Shown: positions 13,903 through 27,973, numbered from the stretch's first letter. The stretch: DNA of 64,000 nucleotides from an uncultured Candidatus Saccharibacteria bacterium (GCA_964585065.1 CAZPCB010000003.1:67776-131775); one strand, 5' to 3'. The notes: a model not told the origin generated them from the sequence alone. Translations and numbers: made by a program.

Positions 13903-14976
13903 CTATTCTTCAATTGAACTACTATCTAAACTAGGAGCATCTTCAGACTCTTCTGTTATATCTTCTTTAGCCAATACATCTGCATATAGTTTTTCCAATG
14001 TCTCTGGACTATCTCTTAACACTTTACGAGCTGATTCTAATCCTTGTCCTAGGGTATTTCCCTCTAAATCTTGAATATAAGTACCTTTTTTCTTTAATAC
14101 ACCAACTTTAAGAGCTAAATTAATCAAATCTGTTTCCAATGAAACACCTTCATTATACATGATATCAAATTCAGCAACTTTAAATGGAGCGGCTACTTTA
14201 TTCTTTACAATTTTAGCTTTTGTTCTTGCTCCAATAACTTCTTCTCCCTTTTTAATCTGTGCAATACGCTTAATCTCAATTCTTACTGAGGCATAGAATT
14301 TCAAAGCTTTTCCTCCTGGAGTCTCAACTGGACTTCCATAACCCATCATACCAATTTTCATACGAGTTTGATTGGTAAAGAGAATTGTGGTATTTGCTTT
14401 AGCTGAAATTGCAGTTAATTTACGCAATGCTTGTGACATAAGACGAGCCTGAATAGCTACATGAGAATCTCCCATATCACCTTCAATTTCTGCTTTTGGC
14501 ACAATAGCAGCTACGGAATCTAGTACAATAATATCTACATTTCCAGATTGAACTAAAGCCTCCACAATAGATAAAGCTTCTTCTCCGGTATTTGGCTGTG
14601 AAATAAGCAAATCATCAGTATTTACCTTAAGTTTTTTTGCATATTCTGGGTCCAGTGCATGTTCAGTATCAATGAAAGCTGCTACACCACCTTCTTTTTG
14701 GGCATTTGCAATAACTTGAAGACAAATAGTTGTTTTACCACTCGATTCAGGTCCATATATTTCCACAATTCTTCCTTGTGGAATACCTCCAATTCCGAGA
14801 GCCCGGTCTAGAGAAATTGATCCAGTTGAATAGGCATAAATATCCACCTTTTTCACCTCACCCAATTTCATCATGGACTCATCACCAAATTTACTTTTGA
14901 TATCATCTAATACAGATTGTATTTTATCTTGTTTGCTTGCATTCTTATCAATTCCCTTGGATTTAGTCTTTGCCAT
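13903..14976 (-). CDS. recA: Recombinase RecA
   Basis: Walker [38 protein letters not shown]1/L2 loop regions and 357 aa. Confidence 0.97.
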
Positions 14977-22273: not shown

Positions 22274-23388
22274 AATGTATATACTTTTTTAATCACATCA
22301 AGGGTTTCTCTTGCACATTGCTGCCAAGAAAATTGCTTTACTCGATCTAATCCTTTTTGCCGTAATTTTTGCCTTAAATTTGAATCAGTACATATATTGT
22401 CTAATACTTTTGCCATATCGTCAATATCATGGGGATCAAATGAAAGACTAGCCTCCCCCCCCACCTCCACTAGACTGGGGGTATTTGAGACAAGCGTAGG
22501 AACTCCACAAGCCATTGCTTCTAGTATAGGCAAGCCAAACCCTTCATAAAAACTTGGTAATATAAAAGACTGAGCCCCCCATAATAATGGGGCTAATTCT
22601 GCGTCTTCAAATCTTCCTGTAAAAATAATATCTTCTCTATAATCATCCCCAATATCCTTCATGACCTCTTCAACCATCCAAGCTTTTGCCCCAGCAATTA
22701 CTAATTGTTGAATATGTGTCGTATGTAGACGCAATTGCTGATAGGCTTTAATTAAACCCTGAATATTTTTACGAGGTTGTACATTTCCAATATAGAGTAT
22801 ATAAGGTTTTGTAATGCCATACTTCACCTTGACTTCATCTACTCTTTGCTGTTCCCCTTCTTTCATTAATCGAAATCTATCTGTATCTACCCCATGATAT
22901 ACCACCGTGATAAGACTAGGGTCAATATGATAAAACTTGATAATATCTTGTTTAGTAGCCTCAGTAATTGCAATAAGATGGTCTGCCTTGGTAATAGCCT
23001 CTTTGACATATAATTTATGTAAGAAAGCGTCCCTTACGGGGAATGTTTCAGGATAAAGAAGGAAAGCTAAATCATGAATAGTAACAACAGATTTTTGTTT
23101 ACGTGGCTTTAAGAATGGAAGCATTTGAATGGGCATAAACAAAATATCTGGCCTGTCACGCCGCAATAAAAAGGGGAATACTCTTTGTGTCCACATAAAA
23201 GGAGCCTGATTCACTTTATGTTCAAAATTAGGAGCTTCTACTCTTTTCCCATTGGGTTTATTATAATAAAACATATATTGATTTTCTGTATCAATATCCC
23301 GAAGACCTCGAAATAAATTAAGCATATAGGTTTGATTCCCATCTTCTCTTTCTTGACATAAATGTGAGGCATGTACTGCAATTTTCAT
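22270..23388 (-). CDS. Family 4 (GT-B) glycosyltransferase
   Basis: C-terminal EX7E-type region PSFYEGFGLPILEAMACGVPTLVS. Confidence 0.8.
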   Translation of the reverse strand: MKIAVHASHLCQEREDGNQTYMLNLFRGLRDIDTENQYMFYYNKPNGKRVEAPNFEHKVNQAPFMWTQRVFPFLLRRDRPDILFMPIQMLPFLKPRKQKSVVTIHDLAFLLYPETFPVRDAFLHKLYVKEAITKADHLIAITEATKQDIIKFYHIDPSLITVVYHGVDTDRFRLMKEGEQQRVDEVKVKYGITKPYILYIGNVQPRKNIQGLIKAYQQLRLHTTHIQQLVIAGAKAWMVEEVMKDIGDDYREDIIFTGRFEDAELAPLLWGAQSFILPSFYEGFGLPILEAMACGVPTLVSNTPSLVEVGGEASLSFDPHDIDDMAKVLDNICTDSNLRQKLRQKGLDRVKQFSWQQCARETLDVIKKVYTL

Positions 23389-24455
23389 GAATTCTTTGTA
23401 TTATTTTCAAGAGCTTGTATTCCAGGTAATTGCCCTTTTTGAGCTATATATTCTAGCATAGCTCCACCCCCAGTTGAGATAAAATCTATTTTTGATTCTT
23501 GATGTAAATTATAAATTTCATCTACCGTTTCTCCCCCACCAAGTACGGAATAACTCGATTCATTCTGAGCAATAGCTTCCGCTATATATTGAGTTCCCTC
23601 ATCATAGGGTTTTTTCTCAAAATAACCCAAAGGACCATTCCAAACAATAGTTGCAGCTTTATGAATATATTCCCCAAACAATGCTCTTGTTTTTGGGCCA
23701 ATATCATATTTTTCTACCCCTACAAAATCAATGGGTAATATAATTTTTTCACTTTGCGCCTGACCATATTCTTCAAGATATTCATTAGCAATTTTCCCTC
23801 CCACCAATATATAGTCAAATATTTCTTCTAGTACTGAAATTACTGGTAATTTTGTTGAAATTTTTGCTCCTCCAATAATTGCTATTGCAGGTGTATCCGG
23901 ACTTATTAGTATACGATTCAACACTTCAATTTCCTGAGCTAATTGTAGTCCCGCAAAGGATGGAAGATATTCTGTAATAGCTGATACGGAAGCATGCTTT
24001 CGATGAGATACAGAAAAAGCATCGTTAATATATATATCCCCAAATTGGGCTAAGAGATGAGCAAATTCTTTATCATTTACCTCTTCTCCAGCATCAAAAC
24101 GAATATTTTCTAAAAAAACTATTTCTCCTGTCTTAAGATTTGAAATAATATCTGCATTAACTTCACGTATTGGTTTATCGATAAATGTTACTGGGAATTC
24201 CCCCAATTCTCCTAATACTTGCGCAATATATTTCAAAGATAATCCTTCAATTCCTGATTCTTGAGGACTTCCAAGATGAGCAATTAATATAATTTTTGCC
24301 TCTTTTTCTCGAAAATATTGAATGGTCGCTAAAGCTTTTTTAATACGAAAAGTATCCTGAGGATATCCTTCAGCATTAACTGGTTCATTAACATCAATTC
24401 GTATTAAAACTTTTTTTCCTTTGAGAGAATAAGGAATATCTTGAATATATCTCAT
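23385..24455 (-). CDS. pgk: Phosphoglycerate kinase
   Basis: N-terminus KKVLIRIDVNEPV and C-terminal STGGGAMLE. Confidence 0.85.
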   Translation of the reverse strand: MRYIQDIPYSLKGKKVLIRIDVNEPVNAEGYPQDTFRIKKALATIQYFREKEAKIILIAHLGSPQESGIEGLSLKYIAQVLGELGEFPVTFIDKPIREVNADIISNLKTGEIVFLENIRFDAGEEVNDKEFAHLLAQFGDIYINDAFSVSHRKHASVSAITEYLPSFAGLQLAQEIEVLNRILISPDTPAIAIIGGAKISTKLPVISVLEEIFDYILVGGKIANEYLEEYGQAQSEKIILPIDFVGVEKYDIGPKTRALFGEYIHKAATIVWNGPLGYFEKKPYDEGTQYIAEAIAQNESSYSVLGGGETVDEIYNLHQESKIDFISTGGGAMLEYIAQKGQLPGIQALENNTKNS

Positions 24456-24546
24456 ATATTATTAGTATAACATAGGGGGCAACTATTGGCCATATGGTTT
24501 AGACAGCCTCAAAACTATATGATATACTAAATCATATAAATATGCC

Positions 24547-27537
24547 ATGGCTTCAATAAATAAACAATCAAATCGCCAAAGTTTTCGAGAAAAACTCCAG
24601 ACCAATACAGCTGCGGGGTCAAATTTAACATTAATTCGAAAAAAAGAAGAGGAATTAGCTACACAAAGAAAAGCTGATTCTCTTGGTATTGCCTATATTA
24701 ATTTGAAATTCATTCCTATTAATCCTGATGCTCTTAAAATCTTGACTCGTGAACAAGCCCAGAAGGCTGGTATGATTATATTTCAACGCTCAGGAATTCA
24801 TCTCAAAATTGCTATTGGAGATATTAATAATATTCTTACAAAAACAGTTTTACAACAATTTTATCAAAAAGAATATCAAATAGAACTATATTTGGTATCA
24901 AAATATAGTCTTGAAAAAGGATATGCTTCTTATGATTTTCTGCAGGATAGAGGACAAATTGTAAAAGATAGACTACTTATTCCAGAGTATATGATAGAAG
25001 ATACTCAGAGTGATATTGTAAAACTGGAAGATTTTGCTCAAAAAATTAATTCCGTAGAAACTTCAGAATTAATTCAAATGATTTGTGCAGGAGCTATATC
25101 CTCTTTTGCTAGCGATATACATATTGAACCCAAAGGATCTTTTACTCGTCTTCGTTATCGTATTGATGGAGTTTTACAAGATATTTTAAATTTTGATGCT
25201 AATCTTTATAAATCTCTCATATCCCGTATCAAGAATCTTGCATCATTAGTGCTTAATGTTAAAAGCACTTCACAAGATGGACGATTTAGTATTGTGATTG
25301 TCGATAAAGATGGTGCTAATAAACAAACTATTGATGTAAGAGTTTCTATATTGCCGAGTAAAACAGGAGAAATTATTGTAATGCGATTATTGAATACCGA
25401 AATTCACAATTTAGATATTTATTCATTTGGAATTAGACCACCCTTTCTAGATATTATTTTAAGAAATCTTGAGAAATCCCAAGGTATGATTATGTTATCA
25501 GGGCCTACAGGATCAGGAAAAACTACCAGTCTTTATTCTTTTCTAAATTATATAAATAGAAGTGAGACCAATATTATTACTCTTGAGGACCCAATTGAAT
25601 ATCGATTACAAAATATCAATCAAACTCAAGTTGATATTAAAAAGGGATATACTTTTGCTAATGGATTAAAAGCCATCGTAAGACAAGACCCCGATGTGAT
25701 TATGATTGGAGAAATTAGAGACAATGATACTGCCAATATTGCAGTGAATGCTTCTATTACTGGTCATCTCGTATTCTCTACTATCCACACCAATGATTCC
25801 GTAGGTATTGTAACCAGATTACAAGAATTTGATGTAGCCCCCCCACTTATTATATCTGCCATGAATTTATTTATTGCTCAAAGATTATTGCGGCGATTAT
25901 GTGAATGTAAAGAGGAATATATTCCATCAGAGGAAGAGGTCACCACAATTAATCATGCTCTTGCTATTATTTCTCCTAAATCTAATATAACCATACCCAA
26001 AGAAGTAACTAAATTATATAAACCCAAAGGTTGTCCCAAATGTTATGGGATTGGATATAAAGGGCGTCTTGCTATTTATGAGTTATTTGAAGCTCGTGAC
26101 AATATTAAAGAATTAATTAGTAATAATATCCCTGAATTCAAAATATTTCGTAAAGCTATAGAAAATGGAATGGTAACCTTATTCCAAGATGGAATTCTGC
26201 ATGCTATTGATGGAGAAACTTCATTTGAAGAAGTCTTAGCTGTAGCTGGGGATATAAATTATATTGAAGAATTATATGAGTCAACCCTTACGTCAGCATT
26301 ATCTCGTGGAATTCATATAAAAGCAAGTAATACCCCTCCTCAAATTAGTCAATTGTCTGAGTCTATGTCAATTAATGATCAATTAACTACTATTACTACG
26401 GCAGCCCTCTCAAAAAGAGCTACTGATATTCACCTTGAGCCTGATGAGGGGGATTTGATTATACGATTTCGTATTGATGGAGTTTTGTATGAAGAAGCTC
26501 GTATTCCAAAATCTCTTTATCCTCAAATTTTAACCCAAATCAAAATATTCTCAGGTCTAGCTCTGGATATTAGCAATACTATTCAGGAGGGAAGATTTAC
26601 TATTTTTGCTGAGAAAAATTTTGATGTAAGAGTTTCTATTATTCCTGGAGGATATGGTCAAACTATTGTACTTCGTATTTTAAGATCAGATATTGCAAGT
26701 CTTGGGCTTAAAGATCTTGGAATGGATGAATATAATATTGGGCTCCTCAAAGCTCAACTCAAAGCAACTACTGGGCTTATACTGGTAACAGGCCCTACTA
26801 GTGCTGGGAAATCGACAACACTTTATGCAACACTTAATACCCTCAATCAGCCTGGGGTGAAAATTATTACCATTGAAGATCCAATTGAATATAAATTATC
26901 AGGAATTCTCCAAACGAGTATTAATGAAGAGACTGGTTATAGTTTTCCCAATGCTATTAGAGCTTTATTGAGACAAAACCCTAATATTGTGCTTATTGGA
27001 GAAATTCGAGATAATGAAACTGCTAAAGTTGCTATGCAAACAGCAGCAACGGGACATCTTTTGCTATCTACTTTGCATACTAATGATGCTGCTTCTGCAA
27101 TTTTGAGATTATATGATTTGGGTGTTGGTCTTTCTGAAATTGCTGCCTTTGTTAATGTTACTATTGCTCAACGTATTATTCGTAAACTTGACCCAGCTAC
27201 CGCTACTCCTATCACTTTAACTGATGAACAAAAAGATATTATTCGCTCTAAATTACCAGAACATTATCATAATCTTATTCCTGATACTATATTACAAGCT
27301 AATTCAAGCCCCGATCATCCCGATGGGTATCTTGGTATTATGGCTATATTTGAAGTACTTGTTATTAGTCCTACTATTAAAGAAATTATTATTAGTCAGG
27401 CCTCCACAGCTCGTATTAAAGATTTAGCTATTAAAGAGGGCATGACAACCTTGGAAGTTTCTGGTATTCTAAAGGTATTAGATCATACTACTGATTTTGC
27501 TGAAATTGAACGGGTATTAGGAATTACAGTATTATAA
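24547..27537 (+). CDS. pilB: Type IV pilus/type II secretion assembly ATPase with two complete GspE/PilB ATPase cores fused in tandem (996 aa)
   Basis: N-terminal T2SSE_N-like domain, then core 1 with Walker A GPTGSGKTT, Asp box ITLEDPIEY, Walker B VIMIGEIRD, His box TGHLVFSTIHTND and a tetracysteine CECK...CPKC. A second core follows with GPTSAGKST, ITIEDPIEY, IVLIGEIRD and TGHLLLSTLHTND, and no Cys4. No stop or frameshift lies between them. Confidence 0.85.
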   Translation: MASINKQSNRQSFREKLQTNTAAGSNLTLIRKKEEELATQRKADSLGIAYINLKFIPINPDALKILTREQAQKAGMIIFQRSGIHLKIAIGDINNILTKTVLQQFYQKEYQIELYLVSKYSLEKGYASYDFLQDRGQIVKDRLLIPEYMIEDTQSDIVKLEDFAQKINSVETSELIQMICAGAISSFASDIHIEPKGSFTRLRYRIDGVLQDILNFDANLYKSLISRIKNLASLVLNVKSTSQDGRFSIVIVDKDGANKQTIDVRVSILPSKTGEIIVMRLLNTEIHNLDIYSFGIRPPFLDIILRNLEKSQGMIMLSGPTGSGKTTSLYSFLNYINRSETNIITLEDPIEYRLQNINQTQVDIKKGYTFANGLKAIVRQDPDVIMIGEIRDNDTANIAVNASITGHLVFSTIHTNDSVGIVTRLQEFDVAPPLIISAMNLFIAQRLLRRLCECKEEYIPSEEEVTTINHALAIISPKSNITIPKEVTKLYKPKGCPKCYGIGYKGRLAIYELFEARDNIKELISNNIPEFKIFRKAIENGMVTLFQDGILHAIDGETSFEEVLAVAGDINYIEELYESTLTSALSRGIHIKASNTPPQISQLSESMSINDQLTTITTAALSKRATDIHLEPDEGDLIIRFRIDGVLYEEARIPKSLYPQILTQIKIFSGLALDISNTIQEGRFTIFAEKNFDVRVSIIPGGYGQTIVLRILRSDIASLGLKDLGMDEYNIGLLKAQLKATTGLILVTGPTSAGKSTTLYATLNTLNQPGVKIITIEDPIEYKLSGILQTSINEETGYSFPNAIRALLRQNPNIVLIGEIRDNETAKVAMQTAATGHLLLSTLHTNDAASAILRLYDLGVGLSEIAAFVNVTIAQRIIRKLDPATATPITLTDEQKDIIRSKLPEHYHNLIPDTILQANSSPDHPDGYLGIMAIFEVLVISPTIKEIIISQASTARIKDLAIKEGMTTLEVSGILKVLDHTTDFAEIERVLGITVL

Positions 27538-27538
27538 T

Positions 27539-27973
27539 ATGAGTATACTTTCTCAATCCATAACACAAACACAAGAAATTGCCCAAACTCTTGCGCAAGA
27601 GGTATTAGAAGGCTCAAAACCTCGGCTCATATTACTTGATGGGGAACTTGGAGGGGGGAAAACAACATTTAGTCAGGGATTCCTAAAAGCACTTGGTATT
27701 ACTCAAACGGTCAATAGCCCAACTTTTGTAATTATGAAACCCTATACTATTCCAAATTCAGAATATACGGTATATCATTTTGATTTATATCGCCTCGAGC
27801 AAGAGTGGGAAGTATTGGAACTCGGCATTAATGATATATTACAAAACTCTCAATCTATACTTCTGATTGAATGGGCTAATAAAACTCCTCATCTCTGGGA
27901 GAATATCCCCCATATTCAAATTACTTTTAATGTAATAAGCCCTCAGGAAAGATCTATTATTATTCAATCCTAA
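27539..27973 (+). CDS. tsaE: tRNA t6A37 threonylcarbamoyladenosine biosynthesis protein TsaE
   Basis: P-loop LDGELGGGKTTF...SPTF.I, which is YjeE-like. Confidence 0.8.
   Translation: MSILSQSITQTQEIAQTLAQEVLEGSKPRLILLDGELGGGKTTFSQGFLKALGITQTVNSPTFVIMKPYTIPNSEYTVYHFDLYRLEQEWEVLELGINDILQNSQSILLIEWANKTPHLWENIPHIQITFNVISPQERSIIIQS

Follow-up and report, generated by a model that had tools for sequence, protein, structure and literature searches.

Analysis of a 64,000-nucleotide (nt) stretch from an uncultured Candidatus Saccharibacteria bacterium (GCA_964585065.1 CAZPCB010000003.1:67776-131775; hereafter the window, in which positions are counted from the first letter unless another locus is named) revealed one genuine gene whose product, an ATPase of the PilB/GspE type, carries two complete ATPase cores in a single chain. 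The open reading frame (ORF) starts with ATG at 24547, ends with a stop codon at 27535-27537 on the plus strand, and encodes 996 amino acids (aa) without interruption in a genome of 34% G+C. Pfam T2SSE (PF00437) matched the protein in two stretches (687 bits in total, against a gathering score of 24.9), and an N-terminal domain of the MshEN/T2SSE_N type (PF05157; N1D) was recognized at aa 46-122 with a marginal pass (24.4 bits, cut-off 23.1); this N1D is present once, ahead of core 1 only. Alignment of the two halves to each other showed that core 1 and core 2, each an N2D-CTD unit, share 36% identity over 408 residues (E = 9e-82), and the best solved relatives, the PilB proteins of Myxococcus xanthus and Geobacter, span only residues 6-566 of the window protein. 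The original prediction for this stretch, an uninterrupted 996-aa frame with a T2SSE_N-type domain followed by two full cores, was borne out by the ORF call, Pfam and self-alignment, and by the alignment to single-core PilB.

No description of a natural tandem PilB/GspE ATPase, or of a natural covalent tandem anywhere in the GspE/PilB/PilT family, was found in full-text literature searches or in a targeted check of a recent review of type IV filaments, a text in which the word 'tandem' does not occur. Proteins of this kind have been in databases under generic names at least since an ACD metagenome of 2012 (EKE11559.1). The tandem GspE/PilB architecture thus appears undescribed, although its parts are well known, and the function given to it here is a predicted one.

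Conservation of the fusion and catalytic state of the two cores

When 5.8 billion proteins were searched, matches at 95-100% coverage and 39-94% identity came from at least 120 clusters, whose proteins are about 1000 aa long. In support of the predicted fusion, the survey of relatives recovered at least 105 full-length orthologues (978-1079 aa) with the same arrangement. These are named 'GspE/PulE family protein' and come from Minisyncoccia, Parcubacteria, Moraniibacteriota, Pacebacteria and Patescibacteria; all taxonomically named orthologues belong to Patescibacteria. The exact window protein is present in public assemblies (NCBI, Logan; a 146-kb contig) as P0391, and 996-aa members of the same 90% identity cluster occur in at least 12 further independent assemblies. 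An exhaustive HMMER scan against 1.84 billion representatives yielded 13,800 relatives with E <= 1e-30. The top ranks were taken by tandem proteins of full length (978-1018 aa), which make up 13 clusters at 50% identity, and below them came fragments and single-core PilBs. A scan with a junction-specific alignment gives no estimate of the distribution of tandem proteins, since it mostly found single-core PilBs through their N2D and, among the matches listed, only L003-L005 are tandem.

Comparison with the 94%-identical orthologue at locus L002 gave ratios of non-synonymous to synonymous substitution (dN/dS) of 0.05 (core 1), 0.06 (core 2), 0.12 (the linker between the cores) and 0.09 (the N-terminus). 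That two adjacent pilB genes were joined by a missed stop codon or a frameshift at about nt 26250 has practically no likelihood and is rejected, because a continuous frame and a conserved, structured linker are shared by the at least 105 orthologues from NCBI, JGI, ENA and Logan and because the linker is itself under purifying selection; moreover, a core-2-type gene was found at none of the 73 canonical pilB loci examined.

The family was further characterized in an alignment of 106 full-length members, to which all counts out of 106 refer. The linker contains an amphipathic helix with the consensus F/Y-L-x-x-x-Y-E-x-L-M-x-x-x-L-x-R, and the stretch measured between two landmark residues is 67 aa long in 83 members and 58-59 aa long in the clade of the window protein. 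An internal translation start for core 2 was considered and rejected, as the sole nearby Met (M609, nt 26371) is not conserved and has no Shine-Dalgarno-like sequence upstream. Two apparent exceptions to the pattern of the family were also discarded. A 416-aa protein that seemed to be a stand-alone core 2 (P0134) is encoded by a gene cut by the end of its contig, with tsaE-pfkB-femAB downstream as in the clade of the window protein. An apparent spread of the fusion beyond the Candidate Phyla Radiation (CPR), through P0118 from 'Candidatus Fimivivens' (Bacillota), reflects a mislabelled bin, since its contig shows typical CPR synteny. The 'Candidatus Fimivivens' label of locus L089 is wrong, and the 'uncultured Gammaproteobacteria' labels of L004, L006, L008 and L055 look equally doubtful.

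Both cores carry a Walker A motif, an Asp box, a Walker B motif with the catalytic Glu (GEIRD) and a His box, as had been claimed, and so do the cores of nearly all 106 members. The core 2 Walker A reads GPTGSGKTT in 79/106 members and GPTSAGKST in 16/106; the variants listed all fit GPT[GS][SA]GK[ST]T, with Gly and Lys invariant. The Asp boxes, IITLEDPIEY in core 1 (aa 343-352) and IITIEDPIEY in core 2 (aa 773-782), and the His boxes, TGHLVFSTIHTN in core 1 (aa 405-416) and TGHLLLSTLHTN in core 2 (aa 835-846), are near-invariant across the family. The Walker B of core 1 shows no variation at G388, E389 or R391, and conservation of I390 and D392 is 90% or higher; in that of core 2, G818, E819, R821 and D822 are invariant and I820 is at least 90% conserved. 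Where a column is at least 90% conserved in both cores, the two share the same residue in 67 of 70 cases. Core 2 evolves slightly faster, differing more than core 1 in 95% of sequence pairs, and residues conserved in one core only fall mostly in N2D (7 of 9 sites: R201, R227, N237 and Q243 in core 1; G670, R683 and G702 in core 2). A degenerate core, the outcome that would have spoken against the prediction, was not what we found. Both cores are under strong purifying selection, with every nucleotide-binding and catalytic motif kept, and both probably hydrolyse ATP.

Family assignment, origin and the zinc site

Each half alone matched PilB/GspE models (E = 1e-127 for the N-terminus plus core 1 and 8e-109 for core 2). 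The curated cut-offs were nevertheless missed by each unit, with 425.5 bits (N-terminus plus core 1) and 351.1 bits (core 2) against 675.65 for PilB (TIGR02538), 426.8 and 364.4 bits against 630.25 for GspE (TIGR02533), 229.5 and 218.0 bits against 300 for ComGA (NF041000), and 166.1 and 168.5 bits against 319.1 for PilT/PilU (TIGR01420); the whole protein passes TIGR02538 at 765 bits only through the summing of its two cores. By these profile matches the protein is a member of the extension-ATPase branch of the GspE/PilB/PilT (T2SSE) superfamily and not a certified PilB equivalog, so that the predicted name 'PilB/GspE ATPase' holds for both cores at the level of the superfamily and is loose at the level of PilB proper.

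The relationship of the cores was analyzed in a neighbour-joining tree of 25 core-1 sequences, 25 core-2 sequences, 81 single-core PilBs and 8 PilTs, in which the PilTs formed a monophyletic outgroup. All tandem cores, together with four single-core orphans (L006, L007 from Uhrbacteria, L008 and L055), formed one clade within PilB. Of 100 bootstraps, 63 recovered core 2 as monophyletic and all 100 placed the orphans in the tandem clade. The core-1 and core-2 sub-trees mirrored one another, with correlated pairwise distances (r = 0.94). The common clade, the mirrored sub-trees and this correlation together argue for one internal duplication and against a fusion of distant paralogues. The tandem locus L003 and the single-core locus L007 also share their upstream genes, ftsH followed by a gene for a membrane protein of about 325 aa, which gives positional support to a duplication from an orphan paralogue. 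Thus, with moderate phylogenetic support, the tandem protein probably goes back to a PilB paralogue that is specific to Patescibacteria and lies outside any pilus operon, and whose N2D-CTD core was duplicated internally; the two cores have co-evolved within one chain since then.

A fusion of an extension with a retraction ATPase was rejected, as both cores fall inside the PilB clade, core 2 misses the PilT cut-off and identity to PilT is about 28%. The C-terminal tails of orphan PilBs of 700-820 aa were likewise discarded as remnants of core 2, since they are of low complexity or coiled-coil and give no signal with hidden Markov models. Such tailed single-core PilBs with an orphan-type N-terminus (711-821 aa; P0136, P0187, P0192, P0197, P0198, P0213, P0229, P0234 and P0250) have tails of 140-260 aa without similarity to core 2.

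Pilus genes do not accompany the gene, which in this sense is an orphan. Homologues of PilC, PilT, PilD, PilM or pilins were found nowhere in the 64-kb window, in agreement with the predicted absence of pilC, pilM and pilT nearby, and a second T2SSE ATPase is also missing from it. The 14 related tandem and orphan loci are alike in this. Among 15 tandem or orphan loci, none had a PilC or PilD match, and none of 14 screened had PilM, whereas canonical single-core pilB loci had pilC within 10 kb in 65/73 cases and yielded 27 PilM matches; a typical CPR operon (L019) has the order pilB-pilT-pilC-pilin-pilD-pilins. The lineage thus lives outside pilus operons and usually near tsaE, a homologue of which lies within 7 kb in 10/15 tandem or orphan loci and in 0/73 canonical ones. 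Both locus types occur in Paceibacteria and in Moraniibacteriota, a co-occurrence seen at the level of the class. A previously unremarked, operon-less PilB lineage is thereby defined in Patescibacteria.

The original prediction also placed the tetracysteine zinc motif in the first module only. This is true of the window protein, whose only Cys residues are at positions 180, 452, 454, 496 and 499, and does not extend to the fusion as such, since core 2 contains four Cys or more in 87/106 members. The counts in core 2 are four Cys in 82 members, five in 5, two in 3 and none in 16, and the last group is made up of the window protein together with the relatives nearest to it, at 59% identity or more; in core 1, C452, C454, C496 and C499 occupy invariant columns. 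Because 87 members retain the core 2 residues and 16 have none, their loss is a late, derived event specific to the clade of the window protein. It need not mean inactivation, because canonical single-core PilBs of Paceibacteria that adjoin pilC (L020, L061, L071, L074 and L077) show the same loss, with only 0-2 of the four zinc-site Cys. The supposedly essential tetracysteine motif is thus often degenerate in canonical Paceibacteria PilBs, an example being the zinc region of L071 (...KLSEEKEKY...DSPDGYKGR). Four of these loci (L061, L071, L074 and L077) have pgk on the downstream side of pilC, at a distance of 3-6 kb.

Assembly models, proposed function and alternatives

Type IV pili, type II secretion and DNA-uptake fibres are driven by PilB-type motors, which are normally rings of six separate chains; how six identical sites fire and how a six-fold motor is coupled to its platform are debated. 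Pili are central to the episymbiotic lifestyle of Patescibacteria. In PilB-type rings, N2D packs on the CTD of the next subunit, and the N2D face addresses the platform. The platform was long taken as a dimer, whereas the Pelicic 2023 review and the PulF study model it as a trimer whose subunits each contribute two duplicated cytoplasmic domains; the ATPase hexamer is modelled on this trimer, successive ATPase N-domains contacting successive Cyt1/Cyt2 domains. With such a platform, alternate positions of the ring are already non-equivalent.

Against this background, three chains of the tandem ATPase would come together as one ring of six cores in which A and B alternate (ABABAB). With its N2D face this ring would contact a PilC-type platform trimer whose gene lies at another place in the genome, and it would map one-to-one on the six cytoplasmic domains of that trimer; the filament assembled by the complex would be of type IV, either a pilus or a competence-type fibre. 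The trimer of dimers put forward in the original prediction is a reasonable proposal of this kind. The whole of this explanation (a genuine double-core gene, internal duplication, an ABABAB ring and a filament motor) is on balance plausible. For its parts, a filament-motor function of some kind is fairly likely; the single-ring ABABAB assembly, proposed by analogy with known rings, is finely balanced; and a trimer of covalent dimers in which the A cores would be adapted to one of the two PilC-type cytoplasmic domains and the B cores to the other is tentative. The core-specific N2D sites described above, the C3 'OCOCOC' ring states in the Protein Data Bank for PilT4 and PilU, and a second, unrelated fusion (P0143, below) are consistent with an ABABAB ring, and none is a test of it.

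Structure prediction with AlphaFold2 folded both cores with confidence and gave a mean predicted local distance difference test (pLDDT) score of 86.5 for the full-length protein and 91.2 for a two-core construct. The N1D is folded as an alpha/beta domain (aa 47-133, pLDDT 83-91), core 2 has a pLDDT of 82-94, and the linker forms a helix at aa 571-585, with pLDDT falling to 65-74 at aa 581-600. In a Foldseek search, one N2D-CTD core matched Geobacter PilB (5TSG/5TSH) with a target-normalised template modelling (TM) score of 0.89-0.94 and a root-mean-square deviation of 2.0-3.1 Å; the table of matches leaves open which of the two cores superposes, and it contains no solved chain that covers both.

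Several observations weigh against the explanation as a whole. Genes for a platform, pilins or alignment proteins were found near the gene in none of the 15 loci, and the conserved neighbours (tsaE, with ruvB, yebC, ruvC and polA in a subgroup) include no pilus gene. The single cores are each under the curated PilB, GspE and ComGA cut-offs. The exclusive clade of tandem and orphan proteins was recovered in only about 56% of bootstraps, a moderate value, and core 1 is paraphyletic, so that the single-core orphans could be either ancestral or secondarily reduced. Finally, the predicted TM scores (pTM) of the AlphaFold2 monomers were 0.53 and 0.58, and the geometry between the cores is not fixed.

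These pTM values, by which no in-plane packing is committed to, are also compatible with a stacked double ring, in which six chains form two tiers, six core-1 domains over six core-2 domains, as in KaiC, p97/NSF or ClpB; the upper ring alone would touch the platform, and the lower tier would be regulatory or boost the force. Tandem P-loop ATPase modules in one chain commonly stack (KaiC, p97 and ClpB), and the linker, of about 30-37 residues with a conserved helix, is long enough. The arrangement is also sterically plausible in view of GspE-Hcp1 fusions (4ksr, 4kss), where a hexameric ring sits coaxially at the GspE C-termini. We nevertheless consider it unlikely. In the rotary model, the N2D face of one ring pushes PilC, and a second ring would be left without access to the platform. 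The N2D arginines and all motifs are kept equally in both cores, and core-specific sites lie mainly in N2D, as expected for two functional but different N2D contacts; the 2:2 ratio of T2SSF repeats to cores in P0143 likewise fits a planar 3 x (2+2) assembly.

More doubtful is the proposal that the protein is not a filament motor at all, and that an orphan lineage was recruited elsewhere, to DNA uptake or handling or to a process linked to its neighbours, without PilC or pilins. The absence of pilus genes at all 15 loci and the recurrent tsaE would agree with it, as would the main subgroup, where 5/5 loci have ruvB directly downstream and yebC, ruvC, polA and a gene for a DHH protein are close by. 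In the window, recA lies about 9.6 kb upstream, and recAX is also carried by the TM7x T4P-2 locus. The fold, motifs, N1D and zinc subdomain, however, are all of the extension-ATPase type. Gene order of housekeeping genes is widely conserved in CPR without a functional link, and no T2SSE ATPase is known to work without a platform protein. A polytopic membrane protein encoded directly upstream in two tandem and four orphan loci also points to a membrane-associated machine.

That core 2 of the window's clade is degenerate and non-catalytic, with a regulatory or structural role in a ring with three active sites like the alpha3-beta3 rings of F1/V1, we regard as very unlikely. Its four zinc Cys are lost, its Walker A is a variant (GPTSAGKST), it is nearly always the more divergent core, and the tandem T2SSE of P0143 has one dead Walker A (GPTGSGTT). 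Its Walker A Lys, Asp box, GEIRD and His box are, however, intact, its dN/dS is as low as that of core 1, and, as noted above, canonical Paceibacteria PilBs adjoining pilC are also short of some or all of the Cys.

In a natural fusion of two active cores, conserved across a CPR clade, neighbour relations are set by the chain, and every second site is mutable without protein engineering. If true, the planar six-core ring of three chains would give independent evolutionary support to a 3 x 2 organisation matching the platform and to a 6:3 stoichiometry of ATPase to platform. No earlier natural example of a hetero-positional ring would be known in the GspE/PilB/PilT family, and alternate-site mutations could test the C2 (CCOCCO) against the C3 (OCOCOC) firing model.

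Known systems that resemble the protein include single-core PilB (Geobacter metallireducens 5TSG/5TSH/6OLJ; M. xanthus 3JC8), with which it shares 41-42% identity (for M. xanthus and Geobacter PilB), the N1D-N2D-CTD order, the motifs and, in core 1, the tetracysteine zinc site. Unlike PilB, it has the N2D-CTD unit twice, its gene lies outside a pil operon, and its core 2 is without the zinc site. The orphan single-core PilBs are the closest single-core relatives of both cores; that of L007 (Uhrbacteria GW2011_GWC2_41_11, 577 aa) has one core in a context like that of the tandem loci, with tsaE-tsaD 2-3 kb away, no pilC, and ftsH and the membrane protein gene arranged as in L003. PilF of Thermus thermophilus (6F8L, 5OIU), which is among the matches in both sequence and fold, is also long (about 900 aa) through domain multiplication, but there the N-terminal GSPII/N1D domains are multiplied and the ATPase core is single, whereas the window protein has one N1D and two cores. 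KaiC and p97/NSF/ClpB likewise carry two P-loop modules per chain through internal duplication, although they belong to a different family and form stacked rings. The linked ClpX and GspE-Hcp1 (4KSR/4KSS) constructs are artificial covalent rings. In all of these, as in the tandem ATPase, covalent linkage fixes the neighbours and allows non-equivalent sites.

The protein P0143 (CAYLNH010000035.1, from a non-CPR metagenome-assembled genome) is a soluble T2SSF-T2SSF-T2SSE-T2SSE protein of 1047 aa that also has two cores in one chain, by an independent origin, with PilC cytoplasmic-type repeats in place of the N1D. Each of its cores has GEIRD and CxxC...CxxC, and both score as core-1-like (about 355 bits). 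Its core 1 Walker A reads GPTGSGTT (Lys to Thr) and its core 2 Walker A GPTGCGKT, so one core is probably non-catalytic. It was found on two independent contigs (L086 8001-11144, CAYLNH010000035.1; L087 3275-6418), and its neighbours are an ECF sigma/anti-sigma pair, a sulfatase gene and MoxR/BatA genes.

Gene neighbourhood and coordinates

The coordinates of the gene, its domains and motifs, and adjoining features are listed in Table 1.

Table 1 Positions of the tandem ATPase gene, its parts and neighbouring features (window positions unless a locus is named)
Feature	Position	Strand	Basis or remark
Tandem (double-core) PilB/GspE-type ATPase gene, 996 aa	24547..27537	+	Uninterrupted ORF; Pfam T2SSE in two stretches and MshEN
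N-terminal N1D (T2SSE_N/MshEN-type), aa 46-122	24682..24912	+	Pfam PF05157; AlphaFold2 fold
Core 1 (N2D-1 + CTD-1), aa 163-568	25033..26250	+	Pfam T2SSE aa 173-564; PilB alignment
Walker A of core 1, GPTGSGKTT, aa 319-327	25501..25527	+	Identical in 104/106 members
Walker B/catalytic Glu of core 1, GEIRD, aa 388-392	25708..25722	+	106-sequence alignment
Tetracysteine zinc-binding subdomain of core 1 (C452, C454, C496, C499)	25900..26043	+	CxC...CxxC
Inter-core linker, aa 569-599, conserved amphipathic helix YIEELYESTLTSALSR	26251..26343	+	Family alignment; AlphaFold2 helix
Core 2 (N2D-2 + CTD-2), aa 600-996	26344..27534	+	Second Pfam T2SSE stretch
Walker A of core 2, GPTSAGKST, aa 749-757	26791..26817	+	Clade-specific variant; still fits GxxxxGK[ST]
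Walker B/catalytic Glu of core 2, GEIRD, aa 818-822	26998..27012	+	106-sequence alignment
Degenerate zinc subdomain of core 2, aa 882-928, DPATA...DHPDGY	27190..27330	+	0 Cys
Promoter-like site, TAGACA, 17 nt, TG-TATACT	24500..24528	+	91-bp pgk/ATPase divergent intergenic region
pgk, divergent upstream neighbour	23385..24455	-	Window annotation
tsaE, starts one base past the ATPase stop	27539..27973	+	Window annotation
Membrane protein of about 325 aa	L003 7260-8273, L004 116-1168, L006 3169-4167		Adjoining tandem/orphan PilB gene
Membrane protein of about 325 aa	L007 8504-9487, L008 2637-3620, L055 6287-7342		Adjoining orphan PilB gene

The immediate neighbours are pgk and tsaE, just as the original prediction had named them. 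No terminator-like site was found between the ATPase gene and tsaE, and the two are probably co-transcribed. The promoter-like site upstream is the top consensus match of its intergenic region (10/12, with an extended -10) and is supported by position alone; the number of such sites in this region is no higher than chance. Inspection of the N-terminus by eye revealed no cyclic di-GMP-binding motif of the MshE type.

The tsaE gene, which encodes the ATPase of tRNA t6A synthesis, starts one base past the ATPase stop in the window, L002 and L088 and lies 1.3-6.5 kb away in L001, L083, L084, L089 and L006-L008; its link to orphan or tandem PilB genes spans Uhrbacteria to Minisyncoccia. In the main subgroup, of about 41% identity (L001, L083, L084, L085 and L089), the ruvB gene that follows the ATPase gene is itself followed by a block with a bPH_2 protein gene, yebC, ruvC, a 7TM-transglutaminase gene and several ATP-grasp/RimK genes, and the upstream side carries genes for a DHH phosphoesterase, tsaE and polA. 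The window's clade is without the ruvB block and has tsaE-pfkB-femAB-vanW-cysS instead. We regard the tsaE/ruvB neighbourhood as conserved housekeeping synteny of uncertain meaning.

Four single-core and two tandem loci have, directly upstream and in the same orientation as the ATPase gene, the gene for the conserved polytopic membrane protein of about 325 aa. This protein has about six hydrophobic segments, a Pfam scan of the members from L003, L004 and L007 gave no match, and its gene is absent from the window and the remaining tandem loci. For the members of the lineage that have it, this protein is a candidate partner of the orphan or tandem ATPase.

Scans of the window for tRNA genes and Rfam families found one tRNA-Thr and nothing relevant. 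The recA gene of the window is at 13903-14976 on the minus strand; at the equivalent position, L002 has a gene with a prepilin N-methylation motif and an FGE-sulfatase domain, a local difference between close relatives.

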